Assembly (NCBI RefSeq): GCF_044647545.1
Contig: NZ_CP172818.1
Strand: one strand, 5' to 3'
Length of the DNA stretch: 64,000 nt
From: Escherichia coli
Lineage (GTDB): Bacteria > Pseudomonadota > Gammaproteobacteria > Enterobacterales > Enterobacteriaceae
The notes beneath the pieces were generated by a model. The model was not told the DNA's origin. It was given only the letters and a program-made list of their open reading frames with translations, and did no database searches. Both the position numbers and the translations under genes were made by a program. Of this stretch, positions 19,853 through 37,197 are shown one piece after another (positions within the stretch are counted from its first letter, which is position 1; the number at the start of each line of letters is the position of its first letter).

Positions 19853-21103
19853 ATGGAAAGTAAAGTAGTTGTTCCGGCACAAGGCAAGAAGATCACCCTG
19901 CAAAACGGCAAACTCAACGTTCCTGAAAATCCGATTATCCCTTACATTGAAGGTGATGGAATCGGTGTAGATGTAACCCCAGCCATGCTGAAAGTGGTCG
20001 ACGCTGCAGTCGAGAAAGCCTATAAAGGCGAGCGTAAAATCTCCTGGATGGAAATTTACACCGGTGAAAAATCCACACAGGTTTATGGTCAGGATGTCTG
20101 GCTACCTGCTGAAACCCTTGATCTGATTCGTGAATATCGCGTTGCCATCAAAGGCCCGCTGACCACTCCGGTTGGTGGTGGTATTCGCTCTCTCAACGTT
20201 GCTCTGCGCCAGGAACTGGATCTCTACATCTGCCTGCGTCCGGTACGTTACTATCAGGGCACTCCAAGCCCGGTTAAACACCCTGAACTGACCGATATGG
20301 TTATCTTCCGTGAAAACTCGGAAGACATTTATGCGGGTATCGAATGGAAAGCAGACTCTGCCGACGCTGAGAAAGTGATTAAATTCCTGCGTGAAGAGAT
20401 GGGCGTGAAGAAAATTCGCTTCCCGGAACATTGCGGCATCGGTATTAAGCCGTGTTCTGAAGAAGGCACCAAACGTCTGGTTCGTGCAGCGATCGAATAC
20501 GCAATTGCTAACGATCGTGACTCTGTGACCCTGGTGCACAAAGGCAACATCATGAAGTTCACCGAAGGCGCGTTTAAAGACTGGGGCTACCAGCTGGCGC
20601 GTGAAGAGTTTGGCGGTGAACTGATCGACGGCGGCCCGTGGCTGAAAGTTAAAAACCCGAACACCGGCAAAGAGATCGTCATTAAAGACGTGATTGCTGA
20701 TGCATTCCTGCAACAGATCCTGCTGCGTCCGGCTGAATATGATGTTATCGCCTGTATGAACCTGAACGGTGACTACATTTCTGACGCCCTGGCAGCGCAG
20801 GTTGGCGGTATCGGTATCGCCCCTGGCGCAAACATCGGTGACGAATGCGCCCTGTTTGAAGCCACCCACGGTACTGCGCCGAAATATGCCGGTCAGGACA
20901 AAGTAAACCCAGGCTCTATTATTCTCTCCGCTGAGATGATGTTACGCCATATGGGCTGGACTGAAGCCGCAGACTTGATTGTTAAAGGTATGGAAGGCGC
21001 AATCAACGCCAAGACTGTAACCTATGACTTCGAACGTCTGATGGAAGGCGCTAAACTGCTGAAATGTTCAGAGTTTGGTGACGCGATCATCAAGAATATG
21101 TAA
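19853..21103 (+). CDS. icd: isocitrate dehydrogenase (NADP)
   Basis: 416-aa ORF; the last ~53 codons lie inside the prophage-borne duplicated segment. Confidence 0.95.
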
Positions 21104-21154
21104 TTACTACATGTGTTAAATATTGTAACGGGCGTATAACACGCCCGTTGTTTT
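20943..21154 (+). repeat. attL-side copy of the 212-bp direct duplication (icd 3' end plus terminator)
   Basis: Appears identical to 36118..36329 by visual alignment at a constant offset of 15175 bp. Confidence 0.85.
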
Positions 21155-21156
21155 TT
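21127..21156 (+). terminator. rho-independent terminator of icd
   Basis: Stem aacgggcg / cgcccgtt with 7-nt loop followed by TTTTTT. Confidence 0.8.
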
Positions 21157-21518
21157 GTTAGGCTGCTAACGGTTATCAAAATTTTATCAAAAAAAGTTAT
21201 CAAAACCCCTCGGTAGTTTTGGGGTAGGCTGGCCGGTCAGGTGGTAGTTCTACTACTAGTCTCCCACATAGATATTCCTTAGCTTTTTATTATTGCTGGC
21301 GGACGCTCGTTAATATTTAAGGTCTTCATTGATTAAGACATCCCCAAAGTTAGTTATGTATTCACTGTTATTAGGACAATTATGAATTACCACTCCTTAC
21401 ACCCGCTCAAATATTGTTAAATTGCCGGTTTTGTATCAACTACTCACCCGGGACTCGCCAGGGGACAGCCAACAGGCATTGGGTGCAATCACCTTAGCGT
21501 TCAGGTACATGCGGAATG

Positions 21519-21543
21519 TAAAAAAGGCCGCGAGCGCGGCCCC
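21519..21543 (-). terminator. rho-independent terminator downstream of ymfD
   Basis: Minus strand: GGCCGCGCTCGCGGCC hairpin followed by TTTTTT, 55 nt beyond the ymfD stop. Confidence 0.65.
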
Positions 21544-21596
21544 TTCACATACATCTTTAGTACTGAGACTGTTTAACCTAGGGAATTATTATCGTA

Positions 21597-22262
21597 TTAT
21601 ATTGCATTACAACTCCCAACAGTGACATATGAACTTCCTGCTTTACTCCACGACTTTAATATTTCAAGGCCATGTGAAGAACATATTTCTTGCACTGCGA
21701 GTTCATCGAGTAATCCATAGTAAGAAACACTTTTTGAATTTTTGTAAATGTATCCGTAAAGATGTTTTCTTCCTGTTTCGTATTTTTTGAAGTATGAGCT
21801 TTTATATTGATTTACAATAAGAGTCTCACCTCCTGATTTTAGTAATCTCTTGATGCTAAGAACTATTTTGTCGATTGTATCCCGACAAGGAACGGCAGAG
21901 AGAACATTAGAGCAAAGGATGAAATCGTAACCCCCAATTATTTTGTCGACATCCTCGAAAGCAACTGTATTTGCATTTTTATAATATCGTGGGACATAGT
22001 CAATAATTTTAGTTTTAATTCCTCTAATAATTTGCTCTCTTTCAAGTTGCCTTTTCGAGTCTAGAAAAGTAACTTCATCAAATTTACTGATTAATTCATC
22101 AGAATATCTAAGTTTTCCGCAGCCAAAATCAAGGGCGTGGCCATTTTTCTCAATGCTTCTAATATACTCGCAAAGATATCTAGAGGGCATCGTATGAGGT
22201 TTTGCTGCATTCTCTGAGCGAATATTAACTCCGTGCATATTATAGTTCAAAGCAAGTACCAT
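21597..22262 (-). CDS. ymfD: putative SAM-dependent methyltransferase (prophage cargo)
   Basis: 221-aa ORF; class I MTase motif I LDFGCGK; AT-rich codon usage; start abuts the ymfE stop. Confidence 0.75.
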   Translation of the reverse strand: MVLALNYNMHGVNIRSENAAKPHTMPSRYLCEYIRSIEKNGHALDFGCGKLRYSDELISKFDEVTFLDSKRQLEREQIIRGIKTKIIDYVPRYYKNANTVAFEDVDKIIGGYDFILCSNVLSAVPCRDTIDKIVLSIKRLLKSGGETLIVNQYKSSYFKKYETGRKHLYGYIYKNSKSVSYYGLLDELAVQEICSSHGLEILKSWSKAGSSYVTVGSCNAI

Positions 22263-22976
22263 TCAATTAATGTTATTTTTAGTGAAAAATTCTTTTATTT
22301 TATCGTCCGGGATTTTTCCGACTTGACTTTCAGTTCTGGGCTTAACTGTCAAAGCAAAGATAATACCACTCACTGAGAATGATAAAATTACAAAAAAGAA
22401 TAAAGACAGCAAAGAACCTTCAACATGAAAAATATCCATTTGTTTGCAAAAAAAGATTATTAGGAAGGAAATTAATGCAATTATCGAAAATTCAAAAAAT
22501 ATCCAAAAATAGTATACTTTATTCCAGAAGAGTTCAATATAATGTTTGTCTTCAATTTTTCTTACTTCAGGGTAATATAGATTGCTCATTACATTGTGAG
22601 CTTCATCTTTATTTAATTTTCTGTTGACTCCAGCTCTCCGTGATAACGGTTTTATAATTAGATGCTTATCCCAAAGATATCGCACCCGAAGTAGTTTGGC
22701 TGCATTGTTATGTAGGTCTAACGCACCGCTAATTAAATATGCAAAAATCGCAAAAGCACAAGGTAATATACCAAAAGATAGTGCCCAATTAATAAAGCTC
22801 TCATGATCTTTAATAGGTGGGACATACTTGGTTGGTAATGTTATTAAAGGGATGTATTCGTAAATAACTAGAAGTATGCAATATATTAGCGTATTTAAGA
22901 AAGTTGCTTTATGAAGTTTAGGCAACATTTCATTATAATTTTTGGGGGGTTCGAACATATTATTCACCTGAGTCAC
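22263..22976 (-). CDS. ymfE: multi-pass membrane protein (prophage cargo)
   Basis: 237-aa ORF with about 4 predicted hydrophobic helices; very AT-rich; first gene of a two-gene minus-strand operon with ymfD. Confidence 0.7.
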   Translation of the reverse strand: MTQVNNMFEPPKNYNEMLPKLHKATFLNTLIYCILLVIYEYIPLITLPTKYVPPIKDHESFINWALSFGILPCAFAIFAYLISGALDLHNNAAKLLRVRYLWDKHLIIKPLSRRAGVNRKLNKDEAHNVMSNLYYPEVRKIEDKHYIELFWNKVYYFWIFFEFSIIALISFLIIFFCKQMDIFHVEGSLLSLFFFVILSFSVSGIIFALTVKPRTESQVGKIPDDKIKEFFTKNNIN

Positions 22977-23162
22977 GCTTTAGGATAGTGTAATGGTAAT
23001 ATTTAATTAAGTGTCATTATATACTTTTCAGTAGGTTAGTTACAATTTTTTGTATCTGTTCAGGCTGACCTAGCTTCGCTGACAGACAATATTGTGATCA
23101 GTAGCACGTATCGAGGAGGAGTAGCGCTACAAATTTGACGCTGGGTGAGAATCTGAAATTGA

Positions 23163-23234
23163 TAGAAATGAAATAATGAAATAATGAAATGATGAAATGA
23201 TGAAATGATGAAATGATGAAATGATGAAATGATG
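23163..23234. repeat. tandem octamer repeat: (AAATAATG)x2 then (AAATGATG)x6
   Basis: Directly readable perfect 8-bp tandem array in the divergent intergenic region between ymfE and lit. Confidence 0.9.
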
Positions 23235-23424
23235 ACAGAGTGTCCAGTGGGCACGGATGGTGTCTTACGACATGCTTACCTTAATCGTTCCCAGTGTGCC
23301 TATAGCAGATATTCTAAACATGTCGATAATTCATTACGCATATAGTATCGAACATAGAAAAAACTGAAGATTCATCTTATTTTGTATATACTACCTAGCC
23401 CAACAATGTAGAGGTTAACGAAAA

Positions 23425-24318
23425 ATGCGCTCACCAATTTGTCATCTTTTCTCAGCAATTAATTCATCACCATTTAAGATTGCACCAGAGAAGGAGCAAG
23501 ATCTTAAAACGATAGTTGACGACAAAAAAATTATAATTTCAGTTGTGAGTGAACCTGGTTTTAATATCCGAGTCAGGAAGAATGAGAGTAATAATTCACA
23601 TGAAATAGTTCTAACAGTAGCTTCACTTGAATATATTTGGGCATTTTCCAATTTCTTTTGGGTTTTTACGCAAGAGTACTCCAAATCTCAGAAAAATAAT
23701 GATGAGCACTTTGATTTAACAGGAAAAAATAGGCTTAAAAAGTCTGATGAACTTCTTAAATGGGCAAGGAAAAACTTGCAAACAACAGGTTGCGAATCAT
23801 GGCCTAAAAAATGTCCCAAGCCAGAAGCATATTTACAAGGAAGCGAAGACTCACAAGTTGCTAGCGAGATATTTCTTTGTGCTATTGCTTGGATTCTTCA
23901 TCATGAAATAAGTCATGTTGTTTTACAGCATCCATTGGTCACTACAGCATTCTCCACTCAAGAGGAGCGTGAAGCAGATTCACATGCTACAAAATGGATA
24001 TTAGGCAACCTGTATGAATCCGCTCCTGAATTAAAGAAACGTGCACTTGGCATTGCTACGGCAGTGCTTTGTATACAAAGCTTAGAAGTTGAAAATTACT
24101 TCTGTTTACAAAATACACACCCAGCTGCATATGAGCGTATATATTCGAATATTTCATGCTACCCTGTCGGAAATGAAGAGTTGATTGAAGCTCTATGTAC
24201 AGTGATGCTTCAATATCTTTTCCATGGCAAAAATATCAATGTGAATCTAGATGGGGAGTCCTTTTCATCGATTTTAGGTGATCTTCTCTGTGATATTTCA
24301 CGTCTTACCAGTAACTGA
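23425..24318 (+). CDS. lit: Lit cell-death zinc metalloprotease (phage-exclusion protease targeting EF-Tu)
   Basis: 297-aa ORF with HEXXH motif in ILHHEISHVVLQH; AT-rich. Confidence 0.85.
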   Translation: MRSPICHLFSAINSSPFKIAPEKEQDLKTIVDDKKIIISVVSEPGFNIRVRKNESNNSHEIVLTVASLEYIWAFSNFFWVFTQEYSKSQKNNDEHFDLTGKNRLKKSDELLKWARKNLQTTGCESWPKKCPKPEAYLQGSEDSQVASEIFLCAIAWILHHEISHVVLQHPLVTTAFSTQEEREADSHATKWILGNLYESAPELKKRALGIATAVLCIQSLEVENYFCLQNTHPAAYERIYSNISCYPVGNEELIEALCTVMLQYLFHGKNINVNLDGESFSSILGDLLCDISRLTSN

Positions 24319-24408
24319 TATGGCTGTCCGCCGCTCGCTTAAAGTGGACTTTTTAGTTTTTATCATGTGCGGTGAGAAATTCAATGTGGCGTTGAGATGC
24401 TTAAAGGT

Positions 24409-25536
24409 TCACAACGCTACTTTGCTCCATCCTTTACCTCGATCATCATGATAACGATCGGTTTGTTGTTGTGTTTTATGACCAAGTAGTTTTTGTGTGT
24501 CTAACCCCTGTTCTTTATACAGACGTTCAGATAAAGACCTTTGCTCATGGAATGTCGCAGGTGAACCCTCTCCCCAGTCAATTCTTGCTAAATCTCTCGC
24601 TTTACTAAAATTCATCGTCAATGTATTGGCTTTAACCTGCGCTCCGCGCTCTGCTTGTGAAGTTGAACGAAAAAAATGCACTAAGTATGCACTGACTGCA
24701 TAGTCACGGCAGCGGGCTACTACATCGCGTAAACTCCAGTTAATCGCATTGAGGCGAAGAGAAAGAGGAATTGCGATTTTGCTCCCGGTCTTTTCCTGAA
24801 TGACATGAAGATGATCATCCCAAATATCGCTAAATTTCATACGCGAAATATCACCTAACCGCTGACCAGTAACCAGCGCTAACAGCATGGCATTTCCCAT
24901 GTAACGATGAGTAGCGTCTGCGATATCGAAGATTTTTTTCCATTCTTCAAGGCTCAGCCGTTGTCGGGTAATTTTTCTTCTTGGTTGTTTAGTGGCTAAT
25001 GCTGGGTTATAGCCAGGAGGTACTTCTCCGTAGTGCTGCGCCTCTTTGAAAACATCAATCAGGACGGAGCGAACTACTTGTGCCATTCTTGGCCGCCCAG
25101 CGGCGATATACTCATCAAGCAATTGTGCTATATCTCTGACATCAACGGCTGAGATCAACTTCATTCCTGCTCGTTCTCTGAGCAAGGATACTGGTTTAGC
25201 TTTTTGTTTATAGGTGTTGAGTCTTATATCACCACTTTTAAGCCTGTCATCCTGGATCGCTTGATAGCGATCTAACCAGGTTGACGTTGTGATAGCCTTT
25301 CCTTTGCTGGTTGCGATCCTGTCACTGATAGCCAGAATCTGCCGGGTTCTTTGTTCAGCCAGGCGAGTGTTGGCCTCAGTGGCAATAGCGATAGCTTCAG
25401 CTTCGTTTGTTCCCAAAGCATGGAATTTTCCTGTCACTGGATGCTTATACCGCCAATAGACTTTATTTACCTTCCTACTATAAAGCGGATATAAGTTAGG
25501 GACTGAAACATTATTCTTACGCGGTCTGGCTGCCAT
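24409..25536 (-). CDS. intE: tyrosine integrase
   Basis: 375-aa ORF; C-terminal catalytic region with R..HxxR..Y (LLGHKTQQQTDRYHDD). Confidence 0.9.
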   Translation of the reverse strand: MAARPRKNNVSVPNLYPLYSRKVNKVYWRYKHPVTGKFHALGTNEAEAIAIATEANTRLAEQRTRQILAISDRIATSKGKAITTSTWLDRYQAIQDDRLKSGDIRLNTYKQKAKPVSLLRERAGMKLISAVDVRDIAQLLDEYIAAGRPRMAQVVRSVLIDVFKEAQHYGEVPPGYNPALATKQPRRKITRQRLSLEEWKKIFDIADATHRYMGNAMLLALVTGQRLGDISRMKFSDIWDDHLHVIQEKTGSKIAIPLSLRLNAINWSLRDVVARCRDYAVSAYLVHFFRSTSQAERGAQVKANTLTMNFSKARDLARIDWGEGSPATFHEQRSLSERLYKEQGLDTQKLLGHKTQQQTDRYHDDRGKGWSKVAL

Positions 25537-25762
25537 TACTCAAAATCCGTTGCAAAAGTAATGAGTCATTTTTCTTGATTACAGGTGTTACCAACTCCCC
25601 AACTAACTCGGCGTCCTCACGCACTCGCCATAACCGGCCTTGTTTCATGGCCGGTGGACAAAATAAATTCTGCTTAGCATAACGACGCAATGTGGACACA
25701 CTTGGAGGATTACTTCTGTATTTTTCAGCAGCCCATTCTTCAAGAGTTAACATTTGAAGCAT
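25517..25762 (-). CDS. xisE: excisionase (AlpA/Xis-like HTH)
   Basis: 81-aa ORF overlapping the int start; typical int-xis arrangement. Confidence 0.8.
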   Translation of the reverse strand: MLQMLTLEEWAAEKYRSNPPSVSTLRRYAKQNLFCPPAMKQGRLWRVREDAELVGELVTPVIKKNDSLLLQRILSNGSQTA

Positions 25763-26228
25763 ATGCGATCACCTTATTACTACACTAACTGCTTAGTCTC
25801 ATCATATCGACCCTGCAAGGCCGATTAGTTTCTCCACAAAACAGAGAAGAACACCTGCGGCGGCAGCCGCCCGGATGGATTGGGTTATGAGCCCGTCGTC
25901 CGGTGATGCTCTTCTCTGTTTTGTAAAAAGGACGGTACCAGCCTGAAGCAAGGGTACAAACTGGTACCGCCAGGACTACACACAGCATAAAGTTGTGGTG
26001 CCGGGTGCCTCCCGGTGCCTGGCGAAGGTTGCACACCAGACGGGTGGGTATCCACAGAAGGTCGACTGTCAGCCTCAACCTTAACCCGCGTGCGCTGAGC
26101 CGCATTCACCACAACGCTAAGGATTCTCTTTGGTTGAAAATACTTAGCTGTTATGTGCCTGTCTTTTCACCACTTCAGGCTCGGTGGTATGCTGGAGTTC
26201 TCACACAGCCAGCAAGCAAGGAAACTTA

Positions 26229-34390: not shown

Positions 34391-34941
34391 GCTTATTGGC
34401 TATGTATGTGTGTCAACAAATGACCGAAACACAAATCTACAGCGTAATGCGCTGAACTGTGCAGGATGCGACTCATTTTTGAAGACAAGATAAGCGGTAC
34501 AAAGTCTGAAAGGCCGGGACTGAAAAAACTGCTCAGGACATTATCGGCAGGTGACACGCTGGTGGTCTGGAAACTGGACCGGCTGGGGCGTAGTATGCGG
34601 CATCTGGTCATTCTGGTTGAGGAGTTGCGCGAACGTGGCGTTAATTTTCGCAGCCTAACAGATGCTATTGATATCAGCACATTCGATGGGGCGTTTTTCT
34701 TTATGTGATGGGGGCCTTGGCTGAAATTGAGCGTGAACTGATTGTTGAACGAACAAAAGCTGGACTGGAAACTGCTCGTGCACAGGGACGAATTGGTGGA
34801 CGTCGTCCCAAACTTACACCAGAACAATGGGCACAAGCTGGACGATTAATTGCAGCAGGAACTCCTCGCCAGAAGGTGGCGATTATCTATGATGTTGGTG
34901 TGTCAACTTTGTATAAGAGGTTTCCTGCAGGGGATAAATAA
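34389..34941 (+). pseudogene. pinE: serine invertase Pin disrupted by two frameshifts
   Basis: Resolvase/invertase sequence spread over three frames: 34389..34493 (MLIGYVCVSTNDRNTNLQRNALNCAGC), 34466..34708 (GDTLVVWKLDRLGRSM) and 34705..34941 (C-terminal HTH); total span 553 bp is two bases short of a 555-bp intact frame. Confidence 0.7.
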
Positions 34942-35047
34942 AGTTAAAGACACTTTGTGTACAAAAGAAAGTAAAACAACAGCAACTTGTTGCAATTTTA
35001 TCAATAAAAGTAGTATTGTCGTGAAAAATTGATTAAAGATTAATATT

Positions 35048-35881
35048 ATGCATGTTTTTGATAATAATGGAATTGAACTGAAAGCTGAGTGTTCGATAGG
35101 TGAAGAGGATGGTGTTTATGGTCTAATCCTTGAGTCGTGGGGGCCGGGTGACAGAAACAAAGATTACAATATCGCTCTTGATTATATCATTGAACGGTTG
35201 GTTGATTCTGGTGTATCCCAAGTCGTAGTATATCTGGCGTCATCATCAGTCAGAAAACATATGCATTCTTTGGATGAAAGAAAAATCCATCCTGGTGAAT
35301 ATTTTACTTTGATTGGTAATAGCCCCCGCGATATACGCTTGAAGATGTGTGGTTATCAGGCTTATTTTAGTCGTACGGGGAGAAAGGAAATTCCTTCCGG
35401 CAATAGAACGAAACGAATATTGATAAATGTTCCAGGTATTTATAGTGACAGTTTTTGGGCGTCTATAATACGTGGAGAACTATCAGAGCTTTCACAGCCT
35501 ACAGATGATGAATCGCTTCTGAATATGAGGGTTAGTAAATTAATTAAGAAAACGTTGAGTCAACCCGAGGGCTCCAGGAAACCAGTTGAGGTAGAAAGAC
35601 TACAAAAAGTTTATGTCCGAGACCCGATGGTAAAAGCTTGGATTTTACAGCAAAGTAAAGGTATATGTGAAAACTGTGGTAAAAATGCTCCGTTTTATTT
35701 AAATGATGGAAACCCATATTTGGAAGTACATCATGTAATTCCCCTGTCTTCAGGTGGTGCTGATACAACAGATAACTGTGTTGCCCTTTGTCCGAATTGC
35801 CATAGAGAATTGCACTATAGTAAAAATGCAAAAGAACTAATCGAGATGCTTTACGTTAATATAAACCGATTACAGAAATAA
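35048..35881 (+). CDS. mcrA: HNH endonuclease McrA (restriction of modified DNA)
   Basis: 277-aa ORF; C-terminal HNH motif HHVIPLSSGGADTTDNCVALCPNCHRELH; AT-rich. Confidence 0.85.
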   Translation: MHVFDNNGIELKAECSIGEEDGVYGLILESWGPGDRNKDYNIALDYIIERLVDSGVSQVVVYLASSSVRKHMHSLDERKIHPGEYFTLIGNSPRDIRLKMCGYQAYFSRTGRKEIPSGNRTKRILINVPGIYSDSFWASIIRGELSELSQPTDDESLLNMRVSKLIKKTLSQPEGSRKPVEVERLQKVYVRDPMVKAWILQQSKGICENCGKNAPFYLNDGNPYLEVHHVIPLSSGGADTTDNCVALCPNCHRELHYSKNAKELIEMLYVNINRLQK

Positions 35882-36117
35882 AATTATTTATTAAAGTCAC
35901 ATTTAAGACGTAATACCCTACAGGGTAAAAATTTTCTCTGATCTTAACTTCTGCAAATGTTAACTGCTATTTTTATGCTAAAAATGGTTATCAAAACTCA
36001 AAAACACATGTTTATAATCAATGAGTTATAGAAATGCTAAGGGCTAATGAGTTATATGCAAATTAGTAAAATTATGTTGCTATGTCAGATAGTTACGATT
36101 TAGTCATCTAACTAATG

Positions 36118-36278
36118 TACGCCATATGGGCTGGACTGAAGCCGCAGACTTGATTGTTAAAGGTATGGAAGGCGCAATCAACGCCAAGACTGTAACCTAT
36201 GACTTCGAACGTCTGATGGAAGGCGCTAAACTGCTGAAATGTTCAGAGTTTGGTGACGCGATCATCAAGAATATGTAA
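36118..36278 (+). pseudogene. icdC: icd 3' fragment (last ~53 codons) left at attR
   Basis: Sequence appears identical to icd 20943..21103 but has no upstream coding continuation. Confidence 0.8.
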
Positions 36279-36329
36279 TTACTACATGTGTTAAATATTG
36301 TAACGGGCGTATAACACGCCCGTTGTTTT
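36118..36329 (+). repeat. attR-side copy of the 212-bp direct duplication
   Basis: Same sequence as 20943..21154, including the terminator hairpin. Confidence 0.85.
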
Positions 36330-37148: not shown

Positions 37149-37197
37149 ACATGTGCGTTAAGTATTGAAACGGGCGTATGGCACGCCCGTTGGTTTT
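37149..37197 (+). terminator. degenerate third copy of the icd 3'UTR/terminator (att-like remnant)
   Basis: acatgtgcgttaagtattgaaacgggcgtatggcacgcccgttggtttt matches the icd terminator region at roughly 85 percent; hairpin plus T-tract retained. Confidence 0.6.

Follow-up and report, generated by a model that had tools for sequence, protein, structure and literature searches.

Lit of prophage e14: identity, genomic setting and predicted fold of a known EF-Tu-cleaving protease in Escherichia coli

Lit is among the oldest characterised abortive-infection systems. Its trigger (the phage peptide Gol), its target (EF-Tu), the cleavage site between Gly59 and Ile60 and its dependence on zinc have all been published for the K-12 protein itself (PMC3014915; also PMC11990801, PMC13228613), and HEXXH is the reported active site (PMC3014915). 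The published mechanism starts from Lit as a latent zinc metalloprotease, whose HEXXH active site would lie on a gluzincin core of the M48 type. At a late stage of infection by T4 or another T-even phage, Gol, a segment of gp23 (the major head protein), binds to domains II and III of EF-Tu, and the Gol-EF-Tu complex becomes the substrate of Lit, which cuts EF-Tu in domain I, at the site named above. With EF-Tu cut, all translation stops, and the infected cell dies without releasing phage. Gol binds preferentially to EF-Tu-GDP once gene 23 of T4 is translated late in infection. Its core consists of 29 residues, with 13 key residues inside a 20-aa stretch, and its binding exposes domain I of EF-Tu while giving no active-site residues, a mode of activation described as 'substrate-assisted' (PMC3014915).

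A parallel to this mode of action is found in Type IV Thoeris, a TIR protein with a caspase-like protease, which, like Lit, stops translation through cleavage of EF-Tu domain I during T-even infection. The cuts are made after R45 and R59, next to the Gly59-Ile60 site used by Lit (2024 bioRxiv preprint; PMC3014915). The two systems are otherwise built differently: Type IV Thoeris has two genes, a cysteine protease, a nucleotide signal made by the TIR protein and many targets, whereas Lit consists of one metalloprotease only and is activated by a phage peptide once this has bound to the substrate.

Other systems resemble Lit in their trigger. CapRel(SJ46) and Avs7/8/10 also respond to the major capsid protein of the phage, and in CapRel, as in Lit, what is recognised is a short motif. 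Their effectors are unlike Lit, being tRNA pyrophosphorylation in CapRel and a STAND NTPase in Avs. The sensing step differs as well, since the CapRel or Avs sensor binds the capsid protein directly, while in the Lit system it is the substrate, EF-Tu, that is bound by the capsid peptide.

The lit gene and its place in prophage e14

The window analysed here is a stretch of 64,000 nucleotides of E. coli DNA. The gene of interest, the prophage boundaries and the nearest genes are as follows.

23425..24318, plus strand: lit coding sequence, for the Lit cell-death zinc metalloprotease (Peptidase_U49); an ATG-initiated ORF of 297 aa plus stop, assigned by K-12 identity and full-length profile matches
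20943..21154, plus strand: left boundary of e14 (attL side), the icd 3' end with its terminator and one copy of a 212-nt perfect direct repeat; from a repeat search and the icd annotation
36118..36329, plus strand: right boundary of e14 (attR side), the second 212-nt copy, in an icd pseudogene fragment; from a repeat search and annotation
21597-22262, minus strand: ymfD, a class I SAM-dependent methyltransferase; from profile matches and annotation
22263-22967, minus strand: ymfE, with about four hydrophobic segments; from annotation and hydrophobicity
24409..25536, minus strand: intE, the lambda-type integrase of e14 and right bound of the cargo slot; from Pfam Arm-DNA-bind_1 and Phage_integrase matches and annotation

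A sequence-only reading had described an ORF of 297 aa with a zinc-binding HEXXH motif (as HHEISH), had matched it to Lit, a known system, and had noted ymfD, ymfE and a tandem repeat beside it. All of this is borne out: the ORF is read on the plus strand with the motif at H160-H164, and both genes and the repeat, of 8-bp units, are present next to it. The match to Lit extends over the full length of the protein and is not confined to HEXXH. Pfam PF10463 (Peptidase_U49) is matched with E=1.7e-112 and 374.4 bits, against a cutoff of 23.9 bits, over positions 1-202 of the 202 in the profile. The PADLOC Lit profile gives E=8.5e-124 over positions 1-289 of 290, and the NCBIfam equivalog PRK09672 / NF007238, 'phage exclusion protein Lit', gives 349.8 bits (cutoff 274 bits).

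At the DNA level, many K-12 genomes (among them MG1655, C600, DH1, BW25113 and J53) match the window with 100% identity over 4.5 kb (21300-25800), and the ORF coordinates coincide with the annotated K-12 CDS 'lit: cell death peptidase Lit' (WP_001257372.1). Because its DNA is 100% identical to K-12 lit, the gene is not simply 'Lit-type': it encodes the very Lit protein that has been characterised by experiment, and so the family's type member. Set beside Lit of K-12 e14 (Peptidase_U49 in MEROPS and Pfam; 'Lit' in PADLOC and DefenseFinder), the DNA, the CDS coordinates and the icd-adjacent context are the same, and no difference is found. The gene is almost certainly the lit gene that E. coli K-12 carries on its defective lambdoid prophage e14, a single gene acting as both sensor and effector of abortive infection. 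No observation speaks against this identification, and the reservations given below bear on how strong the defence is in the living cell. The Lit/Gol/EF-Tu system is already known and nothing in it is new here; what has value are by-products of the analysis, namely the predicted gluzincin-like fold, a swappable cargo slot, the presence of Lit on plasmids and its absence from phages, and an upstream array of variable length.

The whole of e14 lies inside the window, integrated in the 3' end of icd. The two copies of the 212-nt repeat are spaced 15175 nt apart, and a partial isocitrate dehydrogenase is annotated at about 36140-36307. The annotated order is icd, ymfD, ymfE, lit, intE, xisE, ymfH-L, truncated terminase, portal and baseplate genes, tail-fibre genes, pinE, mcrA and the icd fragment. 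The lit gene is situated 2.3 kb inside the prophage, between attL and intE, in a block of 31-40% GC: the GC content is 34.8% in ymfD, 31.2% in ymfE and 36.8% in lit, compared with 50.3% in icd and 44.8% in intE. Such a place, low in GC and flanked by attL and the integrase gene, is the classic position of cargo ('moron') genes. At the opposite end of e14, mcrA (about 35076-35909, plus strand), which encodes a 5-methylcytosine-specific endonuclease, adjoins the pinE invertase gene (about 34415-34969, plus strand), so that defence cargo is present at both ends of the prophage.

Two further observations concern integration at icd. Two circular E. coli records of 15.2 kb deposited as plasmids, OR902851.1 and OR902858.1 (L014), carry, all at 100% identity, the 3' fragment of icd, the genes ymfD, ymfE and lit, integrase fragments and the LexA-like repressor; they look like excised, circular e14. 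Within the window, icd is closely followed by a hairpin sequence of 44-49 nt that would fit its terminator, and a third copy of this sequence (86% identical) is present at 37154-37197. The distance from the attR copy to this third one is 867 bp; the region around it, near iraM/ymgK, has a GC content of only 30-35%, and the copy may be the scar of an older integration at icd.

Expression of lit and the upstream tandem array

The sequence elements around the lit coding region are listed below.

23411..23414, plus strand: Shine-Dalgarno sequence GAGG, 10 nt before the ATG; from sequence
24331..24347, plus strand: terminator-like hairpin and T-run, 13 nt after the lit stop; from a consensus scan, as a pattern match only
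22968..23424, no strand: divergent ymfE/lit intergenic region, in which promoter scans show no strong sigma-70 promoter on the lit strand
23168..23235, no strand: tandem array ATGAAATG x8.5, upstream of lit; from TRF, with a polymorphic copy number

A consensus sigma-70 promoter scan of the lit strand returned no site, and a relaxed scan returned weak candidates only, of which the best is TTGATA-15-AATAAT (10/12, with TG) at 23159-23185. In a genomic SELEX study, an RpoD holoenzyme binding peak was reported at lit, and the promoter was described as 'activated only after mutation'. Native lit expression would therefore seem to be weak and driven by a poor promoter. The activation by Gol was shown with both Gol and Lit overproduced (Zhang et al.). 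In a Dub-seq screen, lit overexpression was protective against T6, CEV1, CEV2, 186, lambda and LZ4, in plate assays only, and not against T4; this host range is unexplained by a model in which Gol is the only trigger. Since the exclusion described in the literature depends on Lit being expressed above its normal level, defence by the native gene is presumably weak.

A stronger version of this argument is that, at native expression, K-12 lit is effectively silent, a leftover cargo gene of a decaying prophage that is biochemically competent and gives no meaningful protection. The promoter scans, the reported activation only after mutation, the need for overproduction and the missing T4 signal in Dub-seq would fit such a gene, and so would the state of e14, which is heavily degraded in its terminase, portal and baseplate genes. 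The distribution of lit points the same way: it is present in just 282 of 5426 complete E. coli genomes, always at ≥99% identity, mostly in K-12 derivatives and apparently in one lineage, with a slightly different allele in at least one human isolate (4.86 Mb). On the other hand, the ORF is intact, the catalytic residues are conserved and a binding peak of the RpoD holoenzyme is reported at lit. Kao and co-workers reportedly found, in 1987, that wild-type lit restricts T4 at 30 °C or below, which counts against silence. In addition, an MG1655 delta-lit strain was used in a 2024 bioRxiv preprint in order to remove background EF-Tu cleavage during T6 infection, which implies that native Lit is active. 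An effectively silent lit is rather unlikely.

The ATGAAATG array lies within the divergent ymfE/lit intergenic region and is invariant in almost all of the 282 carrier genomes. In the human isolate 1297KP (NZ_CM173856.1), exactly 40 bp, or five units, are missing; 3.5 units are left and the flanks are identical. Of the sigma-70-like matches on the lit strand, the best (23159-23185) runs into the beginning of the array. One might speculate that the array acts as a 'contingency' element which, through slipped-strand changes in length, controls how much of a nearly silent suicide protease is made, and, as a separate matter, that Lit senses triggers beyond the Gol of T-even phages. The second idea arises from the reported protection by overexpressed lit against lambda, 186 and others and not against T4. 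This reading is unlikely. A minus-strand ORF of 64 aa (23060-23254) also reads through the array and is probably spurious.

Neighbours of lit, the cargo slot and homologues in other genomes

Immediate neighbours raise the question of whether Lit acts alone or belongs to a three-gene ymfD-ymfE-lit defence cassette made up of a methyltransferase, a membrane protein and a protease. The three genes share one low-GC block (31-37%) between attL and intE and are inherited together, also in the non-laboratory isolate 1297KP, and in other strains multi-gene defence systems occupy the same slot. YmfD has a weak PADLOC match to mad2 (E=8.6e-5), which covers only the generic methyltransferase domain; YmfE matches nothing in Pfam, NCBIfam or PADLOC. 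However, ymfD and ymfE form a tightly abutting two-gene unit of 31-35% GC that is transcribed divergently from lit. With tblastn, YmfD and YmfE were found only in K-12-type loci, and neither occurs within 6-8 kb of Lit in five independent loci with homologues at 32-74% identity. Published work also treats Lit as sufficient alone (PMC3014915, PMC13228613). A joint cassette is therefore very hard to credit, and YmfD and YmfE were rejected as partners of Lit on the grounds that they do not co-occur with it. Judged from sequence comparison, they are co-resident low-GC cargo and not conserved Lit partners, and a larger Lit cassette is improbable.

What varies at this position is the content of the slot. 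About 220 further E. coli genomes have an e14-like intE (80-95% identity) at icd and no lit. In three such lit-less genomes (loci L008 1524-5362, L009 3356-5730 and L010 1881-5900), the slot corresponding to 21155-24408 of the window holds other cargo.

First genome: an LmuA-like gene and the PADLOC candidate PDC-S06 (E=0)
Second genome: Septu, as PtuA (E=2e-239) and an HNH partner
Third genome (strain A8): two proteins of 1040 aa and 156 aa

The pair in strain A8 has no PADLOC match and is an uncharacterised candidate. The e14-like attL-int slot at icd is a swappable hotspot of defence cargo that may be filled by Lit, Septu or PDC-S06. Such a variable slot fits the sequence-only description of lit as prophage cargo, as do the position of the gene between the 212-nt icd 3' repeats and its low-GC surroundings. 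This description holds for e14 and should not be extended to active phages, because a tblastn search of Lit against 50,697 phage genome records returned no homologue.

Outside E. coli K-12, homologues at 32-74% identity are found in unrelated neighbourhoods with no common partner gene.

Pseudomonas viridiflava: integrase, reverse transcriptase and TIR-SIR2
A metagenomic chromosome: BrnT, TacA, Eco29kI restriction-modification and reverse transcriptases
An island with an integrase and an AcrVA2-like gene
The contig of the 74% homologue: an ordinary-looking set of acetyltransferase, short-chain dehydrogenase and thymidylate kinase
A plasmid-like contig: ParAB/PsiA/RelE

These sequence contexts show Lit to be a module of one gene, independent of partners and carried by mobile elements of several kinds. 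A few plasmids, from Aliarcobacter, Burkholderia, Agrobacterium and Gluconobacter, also carry homologues. The family is regarded as prophage-borne, and yet the 50,697 phage records are without it, while plasmids and integrative elements have it.

Catalytic residues and predicted fold

Two sets of codons mark the putative zinc site.

23902..23916, plus strand: HEXXH codons, H160-E161-I162-S163-H164; from sequence, homologue alignment, the AlphaFold model and the literature
23965..23967, plus strand: codon of E181, an invariant Glu on the next predicted helix (178-193); from the alignment and the AlphaFold model

By a rough estimate, about 1% of proteins as long as Lit would contain a bare HEXXH by chance. 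As the motif alone can arise in this way, the assignment rests on the family matches. The idea that the motif arose by chance and the protein has nothing to do with Lit, for which only the shortness of the motif would speak, can be dismissed, given that the profile matches span the whole protein (E=1e-112 to 1e-124) and that its gene is 100% identical to lit. With the preceding residue, the motif reads H159-H160-E161-I162-S163-H164, and the codons of H160, E161 and H164 are at 23902-23904, 23905-23907 and 23914-23916. The surrounding translation is ...AWILHHEISHVVL... / ...AIAWILHHEISHVVLQH...

Searches recovered 73 clusters of Lit homologues at 31-99% identity. In an alignment of 31 homologues (31-74% identity), H160, E161, H164, H169, E181 and D185 are invariant. 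The AlphaFold2 model built on this alignment is a confident one, with a pLDDT of 89.1 and a pTM of 0.91. It places HEXXH at the C-terminal end of a predicted helix (141-166) and the invariant Glu on the following helix, the arrangement of a zincin fold, in which E181 would be the third zinc ligand of a gluzincin-type site.

The best fold matches of the model are HEXXH+E proteases of families M48, M13 and M56; Foldseek gave nothing significant, its best E-value being 0.68. At the sequence level, Pfam Peptidase_M48 does not match Lit, which places it outside M48 by this measure, and phmmer of Lit against all PDB chains gave no match at E<=1; the family has no experimental structure. The predicted fold is M48-like, and the missing sequence matches and the non-significant Foldseek result make the family a separate one.

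The sequence relationship of Lit to the M48 gluzincins (BepA/YfgC, HtpX-like 3c37, Ste24/ZMPSTE24), M56 BlaR1 and the M13 neprilysins is undetectable, and only about half of Lit aligns with M48, M56 or M13 structures. Compared with the M48-like proteins, the N-terminal region of about 120 residues (two helices and a three-stranded sheet) and the C-terminal helices are predicted to be family-specific, and clear transmembrane segments are absent from Lit. Misfolded or membrane proteins are not what Lit cuts; it acts on one protein complex of the cytosol.

The title of Kao & Snyder (1988) calls Lit a membrane protein. The sole marginal hydrophobic window in the sequence is the active-site helix, so an integral-membrane reading is unsupported by sequence and was set aside; a peripheral association is possible.

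The model agrees with the literature in making Lit a zinc metalloprotease, and it suggests a place among the M48-like gluzincins for a family still labelled 'U', for unknown catalytic type.
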